A DNA stretch of 64,000 nucleotides from Amaricoccus sp. (GCA_048594665.1 JBMDWT010000033.1:48094-112093); one strand, 5' to 3'; shown: positions 12,430 through 19,363, counted from the first letter of the stretch. Made by a program: numbers and translations. The notes: generated from the letters alone by a model not told the origin.

Positions 12430-12602
12430 ATCGGTCGTGGAGCGGGAAAATGAAACAACCTGAAGGTGAGAGAGGCAAAACAGAAGGCAAAAGTCGTCGC
12501 GTCCGGGGTTGAAGCCAACTGGCCGGTTCATTAGGGCTGGTCGGAGAAACAGGTCCGATCTCGCTCCAGGGTGCCGCGCGCTTGGAATTCCCGTTCGGGA
12601 GG

Positions 12603-13775
12603 ATGGGTCGACGCTCAGGGTGGAAAGTGTCTGTCAGTCCCGTCTCCTTGCTTCTTGTGATCCTCGCCCTGGTGATCGCGCTTCAGGTCGCCACGGTTTC
12701 GCTGGTCCTGTGGCGGTGGCGCGGGGCAGGGCGGCGTGCTCCTGTCGCGGATCTCCCGGCGCTGACGGTTCTCAGGCCGGTGCGCGGTCTCGACGCGGGA
12801 CTGGAGGAGGCGCTGACCTCCAGTTTCTCCGCGCAGGCCATCGACTACGAGGTGCTGTTCTGCGTCGCCGACGCCGATGATCCGGCGGTGCCGCTCTGCC
12901 GGGCGATCGTTGCGAAATACGGCGAGGGGCGAGCGCGTCTTCTGATCGGCGACGACCGGATCAGCGCCAACCCCAAACTCAACAACATGGCCAAGGGCTG
13001 GGCGGCGGCGCGTCATGACTGGGTGGTCATGATCGACAGCAACGTGCTCCTGCCGACCGACTATGTCCAGACGCTCTTTGGAACCTGGACCAAGGGCACC
13101 GGCCTTGTCACCTCGCCCCCGGCGGGCGTGCGCGCCCTTGGCTTCTGGGCCTCGGTCGAGGCCGGGTTTCTGAACGGCTATCAGGCGCGCTGGCAACTCG
13201 CGGCCGACCAGATCGGCCTCGGCTTCGCGCAAGGCAAGGTGCTGATGTGGCGACGCGAGCTTCTCGACCGGGCGGGCGGCATCGCCATGCTGGGCAGCGA
13301 TCTGGCCGAGGATGTCGCTTCGACCAAACTGGTCCGCGCGGCGGGATTGAAGGTGCGGGTCCTGCCGCGTCCGTTCCCGCAACCTTTGTACAAACGATCG
13401 GCGCGCGAGGTCTGGTCCCGGCAGAAACGCTGGGCCTGCCTGCGACGCGATGGCTTTCCGGCACTCTTCGCGCTCGAGCCGCTCAGCTTCGCCCTCCTTC
13501 CGGCACTGGCGGGCGGGGCACTGGTGGGCGCCGGGACCGTTCCCGCGACGGTGGCGCTGGCCTCGGCCGTCCTGTGGTACGGGCTGGAATGGCTCCTCGT
13601 CCGCCGGGCGGGCTGGCCCGCGTCGATCGCACAAATCCCGGCCTGGCTTTTGCGCGATCTCATGATGCCGGTCATCTGGCTGACCTCGCTCGGAACCCGG
13701 GACTTTGTCTGGAGGGGCAACGAAATGTCGGCGGATCCTGAGCATCCCCCCGTCAAAGATTCGGTCCGCTCGTGA
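12603..13775 (+). CDS. Ceramide glucosyltransferase-like glycosyltransferase (GT21 / HpnI-like)
   Basis: N-terminal TM, LRPVRG, NPKLNN, DSNV, LAED and RQKRW (Q/RxxRW) motifs, C-terminal TMs ending FVWRG; exact start uncertain. Confidence 0.85.
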   Translation: MGRRSGWKVSVSPVSLLLVILALVIALQVATVSLVLWRWRGAGRRAPVADLPALTVLRPVRGLDAGLEEALTSSFSAQAIDYEVLFCVADADDPAVPLCRAIVAKYGEGRARLLIGDDRISANPKLNNMAKGWAAARHDWVVMIDSNVLLPTDYVQTLFGTWTKGTGLVTSPPAGVRALGFWASVEAGFLNGYQARWQLAADQIGLGFAQGKVLMWRRELLDRAGGIAMLGSDLAEDVASTKLVRAAGLKVRVLPRPFPQPLYKRSAREVWSRQKRWACLRRDGFPALFALEPLSFALLPALAGGALVGAGTVPATVALASAVLWYGLEWLLVRRAGWPASIAQIPAWLLRDLMMPVIWLTSLGTRDFVWRGNEMSADPEHPPVKDSVRS

Positions 13776-14353
13776 CCGCGGGAACCGAATGGATCGTTCA
13801 GACGGTCGAGACCCAGGGCATGGCGCTGCTCTTTCCGCTCGCCATCCTCGAAGGCCCGATCGTCTCGGTGATCGCGGGCTGGCTTTCCAAGCTTGGATAT
13901 GTCTCGCTCGTCTGGGCCTATGTCCTGCTGGTCATGGCCGATCTCGTCGGGGACGTGGGCTTTTACGCGCTGGGCCGCGGGGGGCTCGGGCTCTTTCCCG
14001 AACGATGGCGGGAACGGCTCGGTCTCACCGAAAACCGGCTCTCGGCCCTCTCGGCGCATTTCGAAGAGGAGGGGGGCCGCACCCTGATCGTGGCCAAGCT
14101 GACCCACACCCTGGGCTTCGCGGCGCTGGTGGCGGCGGGCGCGGGGCGCATGCCGGTCTCGCGGTTCCTCTGGTTCAACCTGCTCGGCACCCTGCCAAAG
14201 ACGCTGGTCTTCGTTCTGATCGGCTATGCCTTGGGTCAGGCGCATGGCATGATCGGGAACTGGATCTGGCGGGCCTCGCTCGTGGGCCTGGTGCTCAGCC
14301 TGGTGATCGTTGGGATCTGGTATGTTCGGCGGCGCAAACGGGGCGGCCTGTGA
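13772..14353 (+). CDS. DedA family membrane protein
   Basis: LEGPIV, ADLVGDVGFYALGR, AGAGRMPVSRFLWFNLLG; GTGA overlap with the upstream stop. Confidence 0.88.
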   Translation: MTAGTEWIVQTVETQGMALLFPLAILEGPIVSVIAGWLSKLGYVSLVWAYVLLVMADLVGDVGFYALGRGGLGLFPERWRERLGLTENRLSALSAHFEEEGGRTLIVAKLTHTLGFAALVAAGAGRMPVSRFLWFNLLGTLPKTLVFVLIGYALGQAHGMIGNWIWRASLVGLVLSLVIVGIWYVRRRKRGGL

Positions 14354-15075
14354 CGACGGGGGTCTCCTGCGTGATCCCGGCCTTCAACGAAGGTCCCCGG
14401 ATCGCCGCCGTCCTTGAAATCACCACCAACCATCCGCTGATATCCGAGGTGGTGGTCGTGGATGACGGCTCGACCGACAACACCGGCGCCGTCGCCTCGA
14501 CCTTCCCCGGGGCCCGCCTGATCCGACAGCCGCGGAACGGCGGCAAGACCCGGGCGCTTGCGACGGGGATCGAAGCGGCGGCTCACCCCTACCTGCTTCT
14601 CGTCGATTCCGATCTGCAGGGTCTTGGTCCCGCCGATCTGACCGCCTTGATCCGGCCGGTTCTGAACGGACAGGCCGATCTTGCGATCAGCCTGCGGGGC
14701 AATGCGCCGGCGCCCTGGCGGTGGCTCGGGATCGATTATATCTCCGGCGAGCGGATGCTGCGGCGCGACCTGATCGCGGCGAACCTGAGTGAGCTCAACT
14801 CCCTGCCACGATTCGGGTTCGAGGTCTGGATGAACCGGCTCTCGATCCGGGCGCGGGCGCGGATCGCGGTGGTGCCCTGGCCGACGGTGGCAAGCCCCCT
14901 CAAGAACCGGAAATACGGGCTCGCGGCGGGGGTGATGGCGGATCTGCGGATGATCCTCGATTTGGGCCGGACCGTCGCTCCGCCGCGGCTCTTGCGACAG
15001 ATCTGGCTCATGCGGCGGAGCGCCGTTCTCTGCGCGCGCGAGATGCGCCGGGCGGAACGGCCGGGCCGCCCGTGA
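14350..15075 (+). CDS. GT2 family glycosyltransferase
   Basis: GTG start overlapping the DedA stop; VSCVIPAFNEG, VVDDGSTD, GGKT, LLLVDSD. Confidence 0.87.
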   Translation: MTTGVSCVIPAFNEGPRIAAVLEITTNHPLISEVVVVDDGSTDNTGAVASTFPGARLIRQPRNGGKTRALATGIEAAAHPYLLLVDSDLQGLGPADLTALIRPVLNGQADLAISLRGNAPAPWRWLGIDYISGERMLRRDLIAANLSELNSLPRFGFEVWMNRLSIRARARIAVVPWPTVASPLKNRKYGLAAGVMADLRMILDLGRTVAPPRLLRQIWLMRRSAVLCAREMRRAERPGRP

Positions 15076-15102: not shown

Positions 15103-15930
15103 TCAGCGCCTCTGGTGCCAGGTTCGTCCAATGGCGGTTCGACTGAGGGCTTCGGCGCAGACGCGGACGATGATATGGAGCGCGACCCCGGCGGCGGTGT
15201 CGCGGGATGTCAGGCCGGACAGGACCGCGCGGCGCTGTCCGGCTGTTCTGGTCAGATCGAGACCCAACCGAGCCAGTTCGCGCTCTCCGGTGCGCCACCG
15301 GGCGCGGACATAAACCCAATCCCGGAAACTGTTCGGCGGACGTGTCGTGATCACGGCCGCGGGCACCACCCGACGACGCTCCGCCGGGATCATCGCCTCG
15401 ATGAAATTGTCGTCGCCGAAGGTCCGGGGAAACCGGCCCCAGCGCGCACGACCCGATGCGCTGAGGCCAAGCAGGTGGTGATAGGCATTCGTTCTCGCAT
15501 GTGGGAGGGCAAGCCAGGTTCTGGCCAGCATCCGGCTCGACGTCGTGGCATTCGTGAGATCCCAGCGGATCGCCGGAGAGACGAGATCGGCACCGCCGGA
15601 CTCCAGAACGGCGCACAGCTCCTGGAAAATCCCCGGCCGCGCTTCGACATCCGCGTCGAGATAGAACCGTGGGAACAGGGTGGCCACGGCATCGCCCGCG
15701 TCGAGCGCGGCGGTTTTGCCCGCCTCCGGCAGTTCGAGCACCCTGATGTCGGGGCGACCGATGCACAGGGCGCGAAGAAGATCGGCGCTGTCATCCTCGC
15801 ATCCGTTGCAAACGAAGATAACCTCCGCGCCATCTCCTTCCGTCGCGGCCAGAAGAGACGGAACTGTTCGTCCCAGGATGCGTGCCTCGTCGTGGACCGG
15901 CACGACCACGCTGTAGGGCGGGACTACCAT
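15103..15930 (-). CDS. GT2 family glycosyltransferase
   Basis: SVVVPVHDE, VCNGCEDDS, GKTAALDAG, YLDADV DxD motif, GDD; start overlaps the NOS stop by 7 nt. Confidence 0.85.
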   Translation of the reverse strand: MVVPPYSVVVPVHDEARILGRTVPSLLAATEGDGAEVIFVCNGCEDDSADLLRALCIGRPDIRVLELPEAGKTAALDAGDAVATLFPRFYLDADVEARPGIFQELCAVLESGGADLVSPAIRWDLTNATTSSRMLARTWLALPHARTNAYHHLLGLSASGRARWGRFPRTFGDDNFIEAMIPAERRRVVPAAVITTRPPNSFRDWVYVRARWRTGERELARLGLDLTRTAGQRRAVLSGLTSRDTAAGVALHIIVRVCAEALSRTAIGRTWHQRR

Positions 15931-17207
15931 GGCATCCGTCGCCAGAGTTTCCAGCGCCGGTGGATCCGATCCAGGCTGCGCTGGAACAGGTTCTGCCGTC
16001 CATCGCCATAAAACGGCATGAGCCGCCAGCCATCCGCCGCACGGGCATTGTAGAAATTCGGCACCGGATGGAAGTTTCGCATCGGGAGATGAAACACTCC
16101 GCAGCCGGCGCCCGCCTGGGGCGGCACGATCCAGCGCCAGTCCGCCGCCACCCGGCGGCCCCGGCCCTGTTCGCGCTGGTGGAACTCCATGAACTGCTCG
16201 CTCGCCTCGTGATGGTCGATCATCGTGACCCCGGCCGCGCGATAGGAATGCAGCACCGCGCGATTAAGCTCCGTGAGCGCCGTATCCCGCCAGAAGGGAT
16301 CCGCGCGCGATGGATCGAGGCCGAGGGCGCGGGCGACGTCGGGCAACAGGTCGTAGCGCTTGCGGTCGGCGAAATCGCGCGAGGCGATCTCGGTGCACAT
16401 GTAAAAACCATTGAAGGGCGCGCAGGGATAGTCGATCCCGCCGATGGTCAGGATCATCCCGCTGACACAGGGAACGGCATACCAGCGCAGGCCGAGCTCC
16501 GCGAGTCCGGGCACCGTCGGATGGGCGATCGGGATTTCGCGAAAGGCTGGCTCCGGCGGCATATGGATCGACCGGCGATCCTGCCTGTCGCGGATGACAT
16601 AGGGCAGGAGGTCGAACCGGCCGGGCGTCCCGGGTGGCTGCCATCCCAGCGAGCGGGCAACGCGGGTCGCCTCGACATTCTGCCGGTCGCCAAGGATCGA
16701 TCCGTCCGGCCGGAGGTAGCCCGCGTATTGGGTGATCTGCGCGCTTTCGACATAGGAAGGCAAGGCGGTGCCCCGGACCGGGGAAAAGACGGAGATGACC
16801 GAACGGATGCGCCCATCTCCCAGGGCCGTCGTCATGTGGCGCGCAATCTGCGCGGCCATTGCCTCGGGCTGGTCGATCCCGCGGCAGTCGAAGACCTCGA
16901 GGCTTTCCCAGAATCGCCGCCCGATACAGCGCCCGTGGTTGCGCCAGGCCAGGCGGGCCCCGAAGGCCAGTTCCTCGGGTGTGTGGTCATAGCTGCCAGA
17001 GCGGCGCAACGCGCGGTCCACCTCGCTCCGCCGCCGGCGCAGGGCCGGGTCTCCGAGCCCGCCCTCGCGATGGAAGGTTTCGAGGAACGCGTGGGCTTCC
17101 TCGCGTCTTTCGCGGCGCGAGAGCCACCGCAACCGCCGCTCGAGAGAGCTGGAGGGCTCGACATAGGACAGACGGGCGGCGAAGGCGGACCAGCGTTCGA
17201 AGGACAT
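15924..17207 (-). CDS. nos: Nitric oxide synthase oxygenase domain protein (no reductase domain)
   Basis: GARLAWRNHGRCIGR heme-thiolate Cys94, QYAGY, WYAVPCV, APFNGFYMCTEI (substrate Glu273), IDHH, ADWRWIVPP: ordered NOS oxygenase motifs. Confidence 0.93.
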   Translation of the reverse strand: MSFERWSAFAARLSYVEPSSSLERRLRWLSRRERREEAHAFLETFHREGGLGDPALRRRRSEVDRALRRSGSYDHTPEELAFGARLAWRNHGRCIGRRFWESLEVFDCRGIDQPEAMAAQIARHMTTALGDGRIRSVISVFSPVRGTALPSYVESAQITQYAGYLRPDGSILGDRQNVEATRVARSLGWQPPGTPGRFDLLPYVIRDRQDRRSIHMPPEPAFREIPIAHPTVPGLAELGLRWYAVPCVSGMILTIGGIDYPCAPFNGFYMCTEIASRDFADRKRYDLLPDVARALGLDPSRADPFWRDTALTELNRAVLHSYRAAGVTMIDHHEASEQFMEFHQREQGRGRRVAADWRWIVPPQAGAGCGVFHLPMRNFHPVPNFYNARAADGWRLMPFYGDGRQNLFQRSLDRIHRRWKLWRRMPW

Positions 17208-17210
17208 GCG

Positions 17211-18761
17211 CTACATCAGCCCATCGAACTGCCGGGCGGCGGGTCGGATTTCCCGGCGGTTGATCTCGAAAACCGCGCGCAGGGCCCGGGCCTTGGCGCG
17301 TCGGTAGGCGGCGTCGCCCGCGCCCGCGGATCGGTATTCCGCGCGGCCCCGGCGGGCGGTGAGGCGGGTCACCTCCATGCCCGGGAGCGACTGCCTGCCC
17401 ACGACCGCGTCATAAATCGGTGTATCCTGGAGCAGCGAGAATTCGTTGAACCGAACACGGTCGAGATAAGGAACGTGGTCCTCCAGGAAGCGGGCCGTGG
17501 CCTCCATGTCATCCGCGGTCTCGCCGGGGAAGCCCTTGAACATCGAGCAGCGCACGCTCAGGCCCGCCTCGTGCGCCTCGCGGATGAACTGGGAGTTACG
17601 CTCCACATTCGAGCCTTTGACCATCAGGTCGAGCAGGCGCTGGCTGCCGCTTTCGAGGCCGAAGCTGATCCGGCGCATGCCGCCTGCGACCGCGAGCGCG
17701 AGATCCCGACGGGAAAGGCCATTGTCGGCGCGCAGGTCGACATGGACGGTGCCGACCCATTCGGCGCCCTGGACATAGCCCTGGATCTCGGAGGCGATGC
17801 CGCGGATCATGTCGGGATAGGAATTGAGCTTGAGATCCAGAAACAGGAAATTGGTCGTCGCATGGCGGCGGGACTGTTCCTGCATTTCGAGCAGCACGTT
17901 CTGGACCGAGCGCGTCCGGAAGGTTCGACCGCTGACCGAGATCACATCGCTGCAGAAGAGGCATTTGTCCCACTGACAGCCGCGCCCGGTCATCAGGGGT
18001 ACGATGCGTACCGGATACCGGTCCCAGGGAAAGTCGGTGTAATCGGGGACCGGTGTCTGGTCGAGCTGGCGCAGCGGCGGCGCCTTGGGTCCGCGACGAC
18101 CGTCCGGCAGGGTCACGCCGGCGAACCGGGTGAGATCTCCGCCGTCGCAAAGGGTTTCGACGAGGGCGGGAATGTCGCGATCCACTTCGGCCCCGACAAT
18201 GGCGGCCAGCCCGGGCAGGGAGCGCCAGGCGTCGGTGACATCCTCGAGGTTGAACATGCCTCCTCCGAGCAGGATCGGGACATTTGCCCCGGCGCAGAGC
18301 TTTCCGATCTCCTGGACGGTGTGGAAATGCTGGAGATAGGCCGACAGCAGAACCGCGTCCGGCCTTCGGTCCAGCGCGCGCCGCACTTCGCGCAGGACCA
18401 CCGGATGCGGTTGCTCCCGTTGCCATGTCCGCAGATCGCGCAATCCGTCGCGCGGAAGCCGGACGAGTGGATAGGTCGAGAGATGAACCCGGCGTTTGAC
18501 GTGATCGAGCCAGGTCTCCCGGCGCTCCCGCTGCGCGGCCGGTACGTCGTGGGCGAGCGGACAGATCACCTCGACCTGATGGCCGCGCTCGCGGAGCGCC
18601 GCCACGATCAGCCCGATGGCATGAGTCGGGAAGGTCGCGAAATTGTTCAGATCAAGCAGGAGGATTCGCCGCCGATGCGCCAGGTCTGCCCGCGCGAGGA
18701 TCACGGGCTCTGGCACGGCTCGGGCAGGTCGAAGAAGTCTGGAACGACGATCAATGGTCAT
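17211..18761 (-). CDS. B12-binding-domain radical SAM protein (class B-like)
   Basis: N-terminal FPTHAIGLIVAALRERGHQVEV cobalamin-binding-like domain, ILLGG, PDYTDF, GRGCQWDKCLFC cluster motif, FGLESGSQRLLDLM. Confidence 0.85.
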   Translation of the reverse strand: MTIDRRSRLLRPARAVPEPVILARADLAHRRRILLLDLNNFATFPTHAIGLIVAALRERGHQVEVICPLAHDVPAAQRERRETWLDHVKRRVHLSTYPLVRLPRDGLRDLRTWQREQPHPVVLREVRRALDRRPDAVLLSAYLQHFHTVQEIGKLCAGANVPILLGGGMFNLEDVTDAWRSLPGLAAIVGAEVDRDIPALVETLCDGGDLTRFAGVTLPDGRRGPKAPPLRQLDQTPVPDYTDFPWDRYPVRIVPLMTGRGCQWDKCLFCSDVISVSGRTFRTRSVQNVLLEMQEQSRRHATTNFLFLDLKLNSYPDMIRGIASEIQGYVQGAEWVGTVHVDLRADNGLSRRDLALAVAGGMRRISFGLESGSQRLLDLMVKGSNVERNSQFIREAHEAGLSVRCSMFKGFPGETADDMEATARFLEDHVPYLDRVRFNEFSLLQDTPIYDAVVGRQSLPGMEVTRLTARRGRAEYRSAGAGDAAYRRAKARALRAVFEINRREIRPAARQFDGLM

Positions 18762-19363
18762 GGGTCAAAATTCCCCTTAAAGAACTGTACGGTCCGGTGA
18801 GCCGTTAACGATTGCAAGGGCCTTGGCCAAAGTCGGTCGCGAAAATGCACGAATGATCGAAAGGATATTCTTTTGGCGAAAGCTTCCGAGGCAGCTTGCC
18901 CTGTGCCGATGAATGCCACCGTGAGATCAAGAATAGCCGAGCGGAACGCGTAGTCAAAAACTTTTCGGTCCCTGGTAAATCCTGGCTGCGAAGTTCGAAT
19001 CTGAGCCGCGTGTCCGGTTTCGGAGGGACGAATCCGGCCCTGAGTTGGTCGTGCGCGGTCGATGGCCATGTCAGTCGTCCGGAGCCGCGGGAAAGCGGCT
19101 GTTCGCCTCCAGGCTTACCAGAGGCCGGGCCGTCGCCGCCCGCGCTCAAATTCCGACGCCCGATGGAGAGACTCATTCCAGGCAACGTCACATCGTATGA
19201 ACCGAAGGCCGGTCCAACCGGGTCAATCTCGCCGCGATCAGATCGCAGAGACCCTGCGCAATCGGCTGTGGAAGAGTCCTGAAGCAGTCTGGAAAAACCG
19301 CTTCAGTCTGCCCCGCTACGTTCCGCTCCCGGTCCGGCGAGGGTCCGCCGGCCCAGGCCTCTG

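Follow-up and report, generated by a model that had tools for sequence, protein, structure and literature searches.

A conserved gene cassette pairing a class-B-like radical SAM protein with a distinct clade of oxygenase-only nitric oxide synthase in Amaricoccus sp. and other bacteria

Why a nitric oxide synthase (NOS) without a reductase domain should be encoded between a radical S-adenosylmethionine (SAM) protein and a glycosyltransferase (GT) is the question raised by a 64,000-nucleotide stretch of DNA from Amaricoccus sp. (GCA_048594665.1 JBMDWT010000033.1:48094-112093), here referred to as the window. An earlier note on this DNA had described three minus-strand genes with junctions of 3 and -7 nt, and open reading frame (ORF) and Pfam analyses confirmed both the layout and the identity of the products:

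17211..18761, minus strand: class-B-like radical SAM protein gene (516 aa; Pfam PF04055)
15924..17207, minus strand: oxygenase-only NOS gene of a distinct clade (427 aa; Pfam PF02898)
15103..15930, minus strand: GT2 glycosyltransferase gene, soluble product (275 aa; Pfam PF00535)

As the earlier note had supposed, the trio is apparently an undescribed system, a biosynthetic cassette of the NOS-containing kind in which both the NOS clade and its partner are new; it is conserved, and full-text literature searches returned no description of a NOS paired with a B12-type radical SAM protein. We tentatively favour the reading that it constitutes a horizontally mobile cassette whose enzymes act in a single short pathway on a glycosyl moiety, with the NOS providing nitric oxide (NO) or an N-oxidation.

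The radical SAM-NOS pair is conserved across phyla

A NOS-anchored scan of 185,579 species genomes yielded 31 loci, and a radical SAM orthologue (57-73% identity) was located immediately upstream of the NOS gene in all 29 for which upstream DNA was available, these loci spanning at least five phyla. Among the Rhodobacterales they were found in Falsirhodobacter, Rubellimicrobium, Roseovarius, Pseudooceanicola, Jannaschia, Seohaeicola and others, and elsewhere in Methylorubrum, Hoeflea, Burkholderiales (Hydrogenophaga, Limnohabitans), Granulosicoccaceae, Kiritimatiellae, Pirellulaceae and Verrucomicrobiae. Isolates carrying the cassette include Rubellimicrobium aerolatum DSM 19297, Roseovarius tibetensis and Methylorubrum suomiense. 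Look-ups anchored on the radical SAM gene revealed the same arrangement, and the pair is present in approximately 95 loci other than that of the window, which is far above chance. The exact order radical SAM-NOS-GT2 recurs in at least eight other loci (L001, L004, L018, L063, L091, L101, L105 and others), and the possibility that the trio might be peculiar to this genome was thus refuted. Within the class the cassette is rare, since an even sample of 401 genomes contained an orthologue in the window's genome only, which itself encodes one NOS and one radical SAM protein of the trio type. In metagenomes, by contrast, it is abundant: 702 homologous clusters were retrieved, the best 120 of which are all at least 61% identical. 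Cassettes with this NOS clade are represented in hundreds of protein clusters, from aquatic and soil bacteria of several phyla.

The two genes are translationally coupled. In the window, the radical SAM/NOS junction reads CTG ATG TAG CGC ATG, leaving a gap of 3 nt, while the NOS/GT2 junction reads ATGGTAG, the GT2 start overlapping the NOS stop by 7 nt. At the orthologous junctions, an overlap of the radical SAM stop with the NOS start (-4 or -1) was observed in 41 of 66 cases. Of note, the radical SAM and NOS genes of the window lie in the same frame at positions 17205-17213, with TAG CGC between them, and a fusion produced by read-through of this TAG was therefore considered; since the genes are in frame in just 14 of the 66 junctions, most of which are -4 or -1 overlaps, read-through is not a conserved feature and this candidate was rejected.

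Pairwise identities of the radical SAM proteins and of the NOSs are closely correlated (r = 0.91), from which it follows that the pair moves as a unit, and the phylogeny of this unit cuts across phyla, which indicates horizontal transfer.

Some loci deviate in detail. The NOS frame is split into two or three in L027, L028, L031 and L054 (metagenome-assembled genomes (MAGs) or contigs), and the GT2 frame is split in one isolate genome (L004:7290-8031); these splits may represent sequencing errors or gene decay. Locus L106, which is close to L027 and L028, lacks a NOS altogether. In a Limnohabitans MAG (L030:1772-4000), a second, diverged NOS (52% identity, F268 retained, C271 replaced by Ala) lies just upstream of the main pair and is itself preceded by a 356-aa radical SAM-like ORF without the Cys triad, 27% identical over residues 238-406. 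These two ORFs may be either a decaying duplicate or a NOS with a non-catalytic partner.

Properties of the encoded proteins

The NOS matches PF02898 with 417.6 bits (cut-off 22.7, E 5e-125), the match covering positions 5-357 of the 362 in the profile. This is the sole domain of the 427-aa protein, with no fused Fe-S or flavin reductase domains, and no match to an NCBIfam model was obtained. Its PDB matches, extending over residues 36-387, are to gsNOS (3e-90), syNOS (5e-88) and mammalian NOS oxygenase domains (about 1e-86; iNOS 2e-86), and it is approximately equidistant from all characterized NOS types. The heme ligand Cys94 (in WRNHGRCIGR) and the substrate-binding Glu273 (in TEIASRDF), which the earlier note had reported as intact, indeed align with their equivalents in gsNOS and syNOS. 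In an alignment of 25 members of the NOS family C94 is invariant together with W88, R89, N90, G96 and R97, as is E273 together with Q157, Y243, Y269, R277 and W357-x-W359, all of which align with gsNOS/syNOS residues. The guanidinium-binding Glu, the residues of the arginine site that face the amino-acid end, and the pterin-stacking Trp pair are therefore all present, and by these residues a member of this clade looks like an arginine-oxidizing NOS.

The protein shares its fold and catalytic residues with the stand-alone enzymes bsNOS, saNOS and gsNOS, and like them possesses neither a reductase domain nor a zinc/N-terminal hook motif, yet it departs from their canonical signature (GWYMGTE, Ile, ~360 aa, no extensions) in several respects. 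The motif reads G-F268-Y-M-C271-T-E, in which the clade-invariant Phe268 and Cys271 replace the Trp and the first Gly after Met, respectively, of the gsNOS and syNOS motif GWYMGTE; an additional Cys262 is also clade-invariant, and Val248 (P-C-V248), near the distal site, takes the place of the bacterial Ile. Furthermore, the protein carries an N-terminal extension of ~37 aa that is conserved in the clade and a C-terminal extension of ~40 aa, the latter comprising D392, L396 and P398 followed by a basic, often Trp-rich tail. At its start this C-terminal extension is matched in the alignment by the post-oxygenase linker of syNOS, while the final residues of the tail vary among members, and the tail is therefore not a peptide ‘core’ for modification. 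A further difference from bsNOS, saNOS and gsNOS is the obligatory upstream radical SAM gene.

NOSs of Gram-negative bacteria, i.e., scNOS of Sorangium, SiliNOS of Silicibacter and syNOS of Synechococcus, are known, but these carry fused 2Fe-2S/FAD or FMN/FAD (+ globin) domains (PMC4436077), of which the cassette NOS has none. The NOS of Silicibacter sp. TrichCH4B, which had been put forward as an alphaproteobacterial precedent, possesses a fused N-terminal 2Fe-2S/FAD reductase and is scNOS-like (PMC4436077); owing to this different architecture it was discarded as a precedent. A 2022 review of bacterial NO formers covers Gram-positive, Sorangium, Synechococcus and archaeal types only (PMC9500659).

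The radical SAM protein matches PF04055 with 51.7 bits (cut-off 29.5, E 1.5e-13), while its match to the B12-binding family PF02310, over residues 126-172, reaches 26.2 bits and thus falls below the cut-off of 32.1. Among 30 orthologues the cluster motif C262-x4-C267-x2-C270 (GRGC-QWxK-C-xF-C-SD) is invariant, the spacing being CX4CX2C as opposed to the canonical CX3CX2C, and the SAM-binding motif FGLESGSQ and a C-terminal FDGxM are likewise invariant, as is the pair LLSAY...GGxMFN in the N-terminal domain. The invariant S140 and G166-G167, 26 residues apart, may be comparable to the SxL...GG signature. A confident AlphaFold2 (AF2) model (pLDDT 82.7, pTM 0.83) has an N-terminal Rossmann/B12-binding-like domain followed by a radical SAM barrel, and its top Foldseek matches are OxsB, TsrM, CysS, MgmA and AprD4 (E 3e-16 to 9e-14, TM 0.54-0.63, identity 14-17%); MgmA (1.5e-08) and OxsB are also the solved proteins closest to it by sequence. 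The three-domain architecture is shared with all five, from which the cassette protein is distinguished by its CX4CX2C spacing and by the invariant C-terminal FDGxM. The label ‘B12-type’ given in the earlier note is thus justified by fold and motif as a description of architecture, whereas cobalamin binding is at most putative; AprD4 has the same Rossmann-like domain and binds no cobalamin (PMC12931638). Judging from an encoded CbiC, the Amaricoccus genome can probably make cobalamin.

None of the three proteins matches an NCBIfam model at its cut-off. The radical SAM protein matches many class-B models with 50-90 bits against cut-offs of 250-750, the best being TIGR03975 (90.1 bits, cut-off 281.85), a score that does not place it among the C-methyltransferases of peptides that are made on ribosomes and modified after translation (RiPPs). 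Equally, its 71.4 bits against TIGR03471 (cut-off 577.6) do not place it among the HpnJ proteins. No conserved small ORF that might encode a RiPP precursor was found within 900 nt upstream at 77 loci, and a RiPP reading was rejected on this basis.

The GT2 matches PF00535 (58.4 bits, cut-off 23.3, E 1.1e-15) and contains an acidic DxD-type motif, Y-L-D-A-D-V, so that catalytic motifs are intact in all three proteins. Its best NCBIfam matches are weak, to MftF-like glycosyltransferases (TIGR03965, TIGR04283).

Partner genes and the possible role of the cassette

Glycosyltransferases are the characteristic neighbours of the pair. When 129 neighbouring ORFs from 33 loci were pooled and assigned to Pfam families, the only recurrent families were GT2 (13), GT4 (5), sulfotransferase (3) and hexapeptide acyltransferase (3), and no reductase, flavodoxin, P450 or H-NOX was present among them. 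Homologues of the trio's GT2 (31-60% identity) lie downstream of the NOS or radical SAM gene in 22 of 57 loci, and 20 of the 31 well-flanked loci (at least 2.5 kb of flank on each side) have a homologous GT2 or GT4 within 3.5 kb. The link to glycosylation previously proposed for the window is thus real, the glycosyltransferases being the sole enriched neighbour families. The window-type GT2 (GT2m) occurs in 22 loci and an EpsE-like GT4 (GT4c9; 228 bits) in 15, with no locus containing both, and this mutual exclusion suggests that they are alternative fillers of one role.

Fifteen of the 22 GT2-type loci also encode an unannotated membrane protein of ~165 aa, often between NOS and GT2:

L039:10819-11313: ~165-aa membrane protein gene, right after NOS or beside GT2

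It was also found in L003, L005, L010, L012, L013, L018, L030, L031, L052, L069, L072, L081, L091, L095, L100, L112, L113, L115 and L116, and is absent from the Amaricoccus genome. The protein has four or five helices and an invariant W70 and H72 in a mostly LQWCHHG-type motif, together with GWExWLP...STKG and, usually, a TNPKE end; its AF2 model, likewise confident (pLDDT 86.6), resembles no PDB fold, and the sole family match is a faint one to FA_desaturase.

At four loci, an adenine deaminase-like amidohydrolase is encoded just upstream of the radical SAM gene, or a 5'-nucleotidase beside the pair (L027:2441-4375, L028:2456-4165, L011:4654-6261, L015:2310-3887), which may be either a sign of chemistry on adenosyl groups or nucleotide sugars or a coincidence.

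The dependence between the two core genes is one-way, in that the NOS clade was never seen without the radical SAM gene while the latter does occur without an adjacent NOS. In a scan of metagenome contigs anchored on the radical SAM gene, 41 orthologues had at least 700 nt of downstream DNA, and with NOS presence judged on the contig, 33 were followed by a NOS and eight lacked an adjacent one; all data combined, NOS lies beside the radical SAM gene in 66 of 74 loci. The NOS-less orthologues retain CX4CX2C, FGLESGS and FDGxM and are scattered over the radical SAM tree, such that at least five independent losses would be needed. They comprise a basal clade (L096, L099, L100) with the order radical SAM-(membrane protein)-GT2, a set with the order GT4-radical SAM (L094, L097, L098), and three loci each nested among NOS-bearing relatives (L082, L072, L106). 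A 408-aa ORF in L098 is probably spurious, having a low-complexity appearance and no Pfam, PDB or NOS-profile match, and was dismissed.

Beyond the orthologues, NOS was never seen beside more distant radical SAM relatives (37-51% identity, with CX4CX2C and F(D/E)GxM). Outgroup proteins of 40-51% identity are encoded beside homologues of the same glycosyltransferase families, again without NOS, i.e., beside a GT4 in L043 and L045 and beside GT2m-like and GT2c12-like genes in L044, while other distant relatives adjoin a PhyH dioxygenase or an uncharacterized protein. For example, in another alphaproteobacterium (L038:6517-9776, genome G172) a 38%-identical radical SAM gene is followed ~0.9 kb downstream by a co-oriented gene for a PhyH-type Fe/2OG dioxygenase, which is another pairing of this radical SAM family with an O2-dependent oxygenase. 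The 536-aa partner of a distant relative in L047 resembles no solved structure in sequence and has no recorded Pfam family.

Because both orthologues and distant relatives occur without an adjacent NOS, the radical SAM protein has a function of its own. Furthermore, the NOS-less orthologues and the outgroup pairs of radical SAM and glycosyltransferase genes point to these two as the older core, to which the NOS clade was recruited later; the data thus support an ancestral cassette that acquired a single NOS lineage and has retained it.

In the pathway that we tentatively favour, this core would consist of the radical SAM protein and a GT2 or, alternatively, a GT4, to which some versions add a sulfotransferase, an acetyltransferase or the small membrane protein with its four or five helices. 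The glycosyltransferase would make a glycoside on a lipid or small acceptor; the radical SAM enzyme would then abstract a hydrogen from the sugar or the aglycone and remodel it, for which HpnI/HpnJ, calditol synthase (Cds) and AprD4 are precedents; and the recruited NOS, reduced by a housekeeping flavodoxin or ferredoxin, would oxidize L-arginine and feed NO or an N-oxidized guanidine into the same pathway, giving an N-functionalized glycoconjugate. Substrate, chemistry and cobalamin use in this scheme are inferred, as is the transfer of NO itself. In support of such a pathway, the predicted fold is that of class-B radical SAM enzymes whose substrates are sugars and other small molecules, and head-group remodelling by a glycosyltransferase and a radical SAM enzyme has precedents in the hopanoid cyclitol ether proteins HpnI/HpnK/HpnJ and in Cds (PMC13459092). 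In these systems, too, a glycosyltransferase gene is paired with that of a radical SAM protein with an N-terminal Rossmann domain, a pairing that is likewise conserved over the wider radical SAM family of the cassette; they differ in containing no NOS, while the cassette protein scores far below the HpnJ cut-off and the Amaricoccus genome has no squalene-hopene cyclase.

Several observations weigh against this pathway. Eleven of the 31 well-flanked loci have no homologous glycosyltransferase within 3.5 kb, so that this enzyme is not obligatory in cis. As all NCBIfam scores of the radical SAM protein are far below the cut-offs, the analogy to HpnJ, Cds and AprD4 would be one of architecture only. 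The NOS retains the residues that hold the alpha-amino-acid part of free arginine, which argues against a glycoconjugate as its substrate and leaves NO or N-hydroxy-arginine as the only link to the pathway. NO is harmful to Fe-S clusters and a ligand of cob(II)alamin, a paradox which the earlier note had recognized and which is real chemistry, and close coupling of the radical SAM protein to NOS therefore needs explanation. Finally, a physical complex would account for the tight translational coupling just as well, and the L030 locus, in which the ORF before the second NOS is radical SAM-like but devoid of the Cys triad, could speak for a non-catalytic role of the partner.

A role of this kind would make the radical SAM protein a physical partner of the NOS clade, whether as an electron donor via its Fe-S or Rossmann cofactor, a scaffold or a gate, taking the place of the missing reductase domain, with a separate purpose for its own radical SAM chemistry. 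The invariable presence of the upstream gene, the lack of a reductase in any of ~100 loci, and stop and start codons that overlap in most loci, suggesting equimolar synthesis, are all consistent with it, as are the clade-specific NOS extensions, which are possible docking elements and of which the C-terminal one sits at the place of the syNOS reductase linker, and the L030 locus, whose second NOS is intact. The L030 remnant is just 27% identical, however, and may be a decaying pseudogene, and the invariance of the SAM-binding and cluster motifs is what a functional radical SAM enzyme would show. Generic flavodoxins serve the other stand-alone NOSs of bacteria, and radical SAM enzymes themselves depend on an external reductant. 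Since eight of the 41 orthologues persist with intact motifs and no adjacent NOS, and the distant relatives pair with glycosyltransferases only, we regard this explanation as doubtful, and the earlier proposal of a redox partner or regulator of NOS is disfavoured as the main role. The same NOS-less orthologues speak against the radical SAM protein as a maturase that modifies a NOS residue (e.g., near C262, F268 or C271) or its heme or pterin cofactor. Precedents for such activity exist in the B12 radical SAM methylases that modify methyl-coenzyme M reductase (MCR) and in the tetrapyrrole-modifying BchE, BchQ and BchR; MgmA, which ranks first among solved relatives in sequence similarity, is an MCR glutamine methylase, similarly weak NCBIfam matches extend to RiPP/protein C-methyltransferases and BchE, the NOS strictly depends on the presence of the radical SAM gene, and clade-specific invariant residues lie beside its catalytic Glu. 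Yet all of these family scores are far below the cut-offs, no conserved precursor peptide lies upstream, and the glycosyltransferase partnership of the family would be left unexplained, which makes maturation improbable.

Alternatively, the genes might be co-regulated and chemically independent, with the NOS giving an NO signal or protectant alongside remodelling of a surface glycan or glycolipid in a biofilm or envelope programme. In other bacteria, among them a strain of the Rhodobacterales (PMC4436077), biofilm and exopolysaccharide behaviour is under the control of NO, the GT4 partners resemble exopolysaccharide glycosyltransferases, and sulfotransferases and acetyltransferases are typical glycan-decorating enzymes. 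We nevertheless consider this scenario quite unlikely, given that a fixed upstream partner with overlapping codons over five phyla is rare for signalling genes, that the NOS gene lies between the radical SAM gene and the glycosyltransferase or membrane protein genes and not at the cassette edge, and that no FNR/NnrR-type box was found across 77 leaders. Signalling through H-NOX was rejected, as the Amaricoccus genome as a whole contains no such sensor. The remaining possibility elaborates the other proposal of the earlier note, in which NO is coupled to a SAM-derived substrate radical and the product is glycosylated: the pair would generate a 5'-deoxyadenosyl radical and, by means of it, a carbon-centred radical on a substrate, glycosyl or other, which NOS-derived NO would capture directly by radical-radical recombination to give a C-nitroso compound or oxime. 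Coupling of NO to a substrate radical before glycosylation is a hypothesis compatible with the data; the evolutionary order suggests that the NOS was added later, after the radical SAM protein and the glycosyltransferase. Direct capture as formulated here is a long shot. Were it true, it would represent a new enzymatic route to C-N bonds and a P450-independent biosynthetic use of NO, the radical SAM enzyme being one able to tolerate or channel NO, and NOS-less cassettes would make a non-nitrogenous congener.

Among known NOS-containing systems, the TxtD/TxtE (thaxtomin) and RufN/RufO (rufomycin) pairs (PMC10831120) resemble the cassette in that an oxygenase-only NOS with no reductase of its own is part of a biosynthetic operon, and use NO as a building block. 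They are distinguished from it by their partner, since no P450 is encoded at this or any related locus, including the window's neighbourhood and the 129 neighbouring ORFs, and a class-B-like radical SAM protein and a glycosyltransferase stand in its place. They also differ in their hosts, which are Actinobacteria as opposed to Proteobacteria, Planctomycetota, Verrucomicrobiota and Kiritimatiellota, and in the NOS itself, which in the cassette belongs to a separate clade (F268, C262, C271 and the terminal extensions). The 8-azaguanine cluster (NOS PtnF/8-AzgA and 8-AzgG; PMC7674941, PMC7109123) is the only case found in the literature searched of a NOS and a radical SAM homologue in one cluster, and NO-derived nitrogen enters its product. 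In contrast to the cassette protein, 8-AzgG is HemN-like with a CxxxCxxC motif, is not a B12-domain protein and does not form a coupled pair with the NOS (PMC7674941); this cluster is actinobacterial and contains GTP cyclohydrolase and purine genes where the cassette has glycosyltransferases. NOS goes unmentioned in a review of B12-dependent radical SAM enzymes from 2026.

The role of bacterial NOSs is largely open beyond P450-dependent nitration, triazole formation and stress protection, and those of Gram-negative bacteria have hardly been studied. The present data define a NOS clade with altered pocket residues that is always accompanied by one particular radical SAM protein and usually by a glycosyltransferase, and they provide a genomic context for a large unannotated radical SAM family (CX4CX2C, C-terminal F(D/E)GxM). 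The trio is a testable system with respect to NO alongside radical SAM chemistry, the reductase that serves the NOS and the N-containing glycoconjugate that may result.

Surroundings of the trio in the window

The ~6 kb around the trio contain genes for FliI, a GT21-DedA-GT2 operon, IMPDH, FtsJ, Ppx and MTHFR. Pfam and NCBIfam analysis of these neighbours identified no reductase, P450, H-NOX or nonribosomal peptide synthetase (NRPS) gene, in agreement with the earlier note. A leader followed by guaB, ftsJ, ppx and metF lies upstream on the same strand, while fliI and the three-gene operon lie downstream on the opposite strand, convergent with the trio:

18762..19363, minus strand: leader between guaB and the radical SAM gene (600 nt), with a promoter-like match
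18758-19069, minus strand: 103-aa ORF overlapping the radical SAM start and the promoter-like site
12582-15075, plus strand: operon for an HpnI-like GT21, a DedA/VTT protein and a polyprenyl-phosphate-type GT2

The genes of the operon are joined by overlaps, and its end is 27 nt from the trio's GT2. Given that the operon was found alone, without the NOS cassette, in four genomes of the same family (L127-L130), this juxtaposition is not conserved but specific to the window. A hopanoid link via the HpnI-like GT21, which scores 179 bits against a cut-off of 310, was rejected for this reason and because the genome lacks squalene-hopene cyclase.

The 103-aa ORF has no Pfam or NCBIfam match and is not conserved at other loci, and is therefore probably not a gene. 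No Rfam match to a riboswitch or other known RNA was obtained in the leader. A role in anti-phage defence was rejected, as PADLOC gave no match. A promoter scan identified a single sigma-70-like match within the leader, at 18957-18930, which is the one indirect hint that the trio may be co-transcribed. Two weak terminator-like matches lie by the NOS/GT2 junction, one near the NOS 3' end (16028-16014) and the other within GT2 (15875-15859), which is fewer than expected by chance (mean 3.1 in shuffled sequence).

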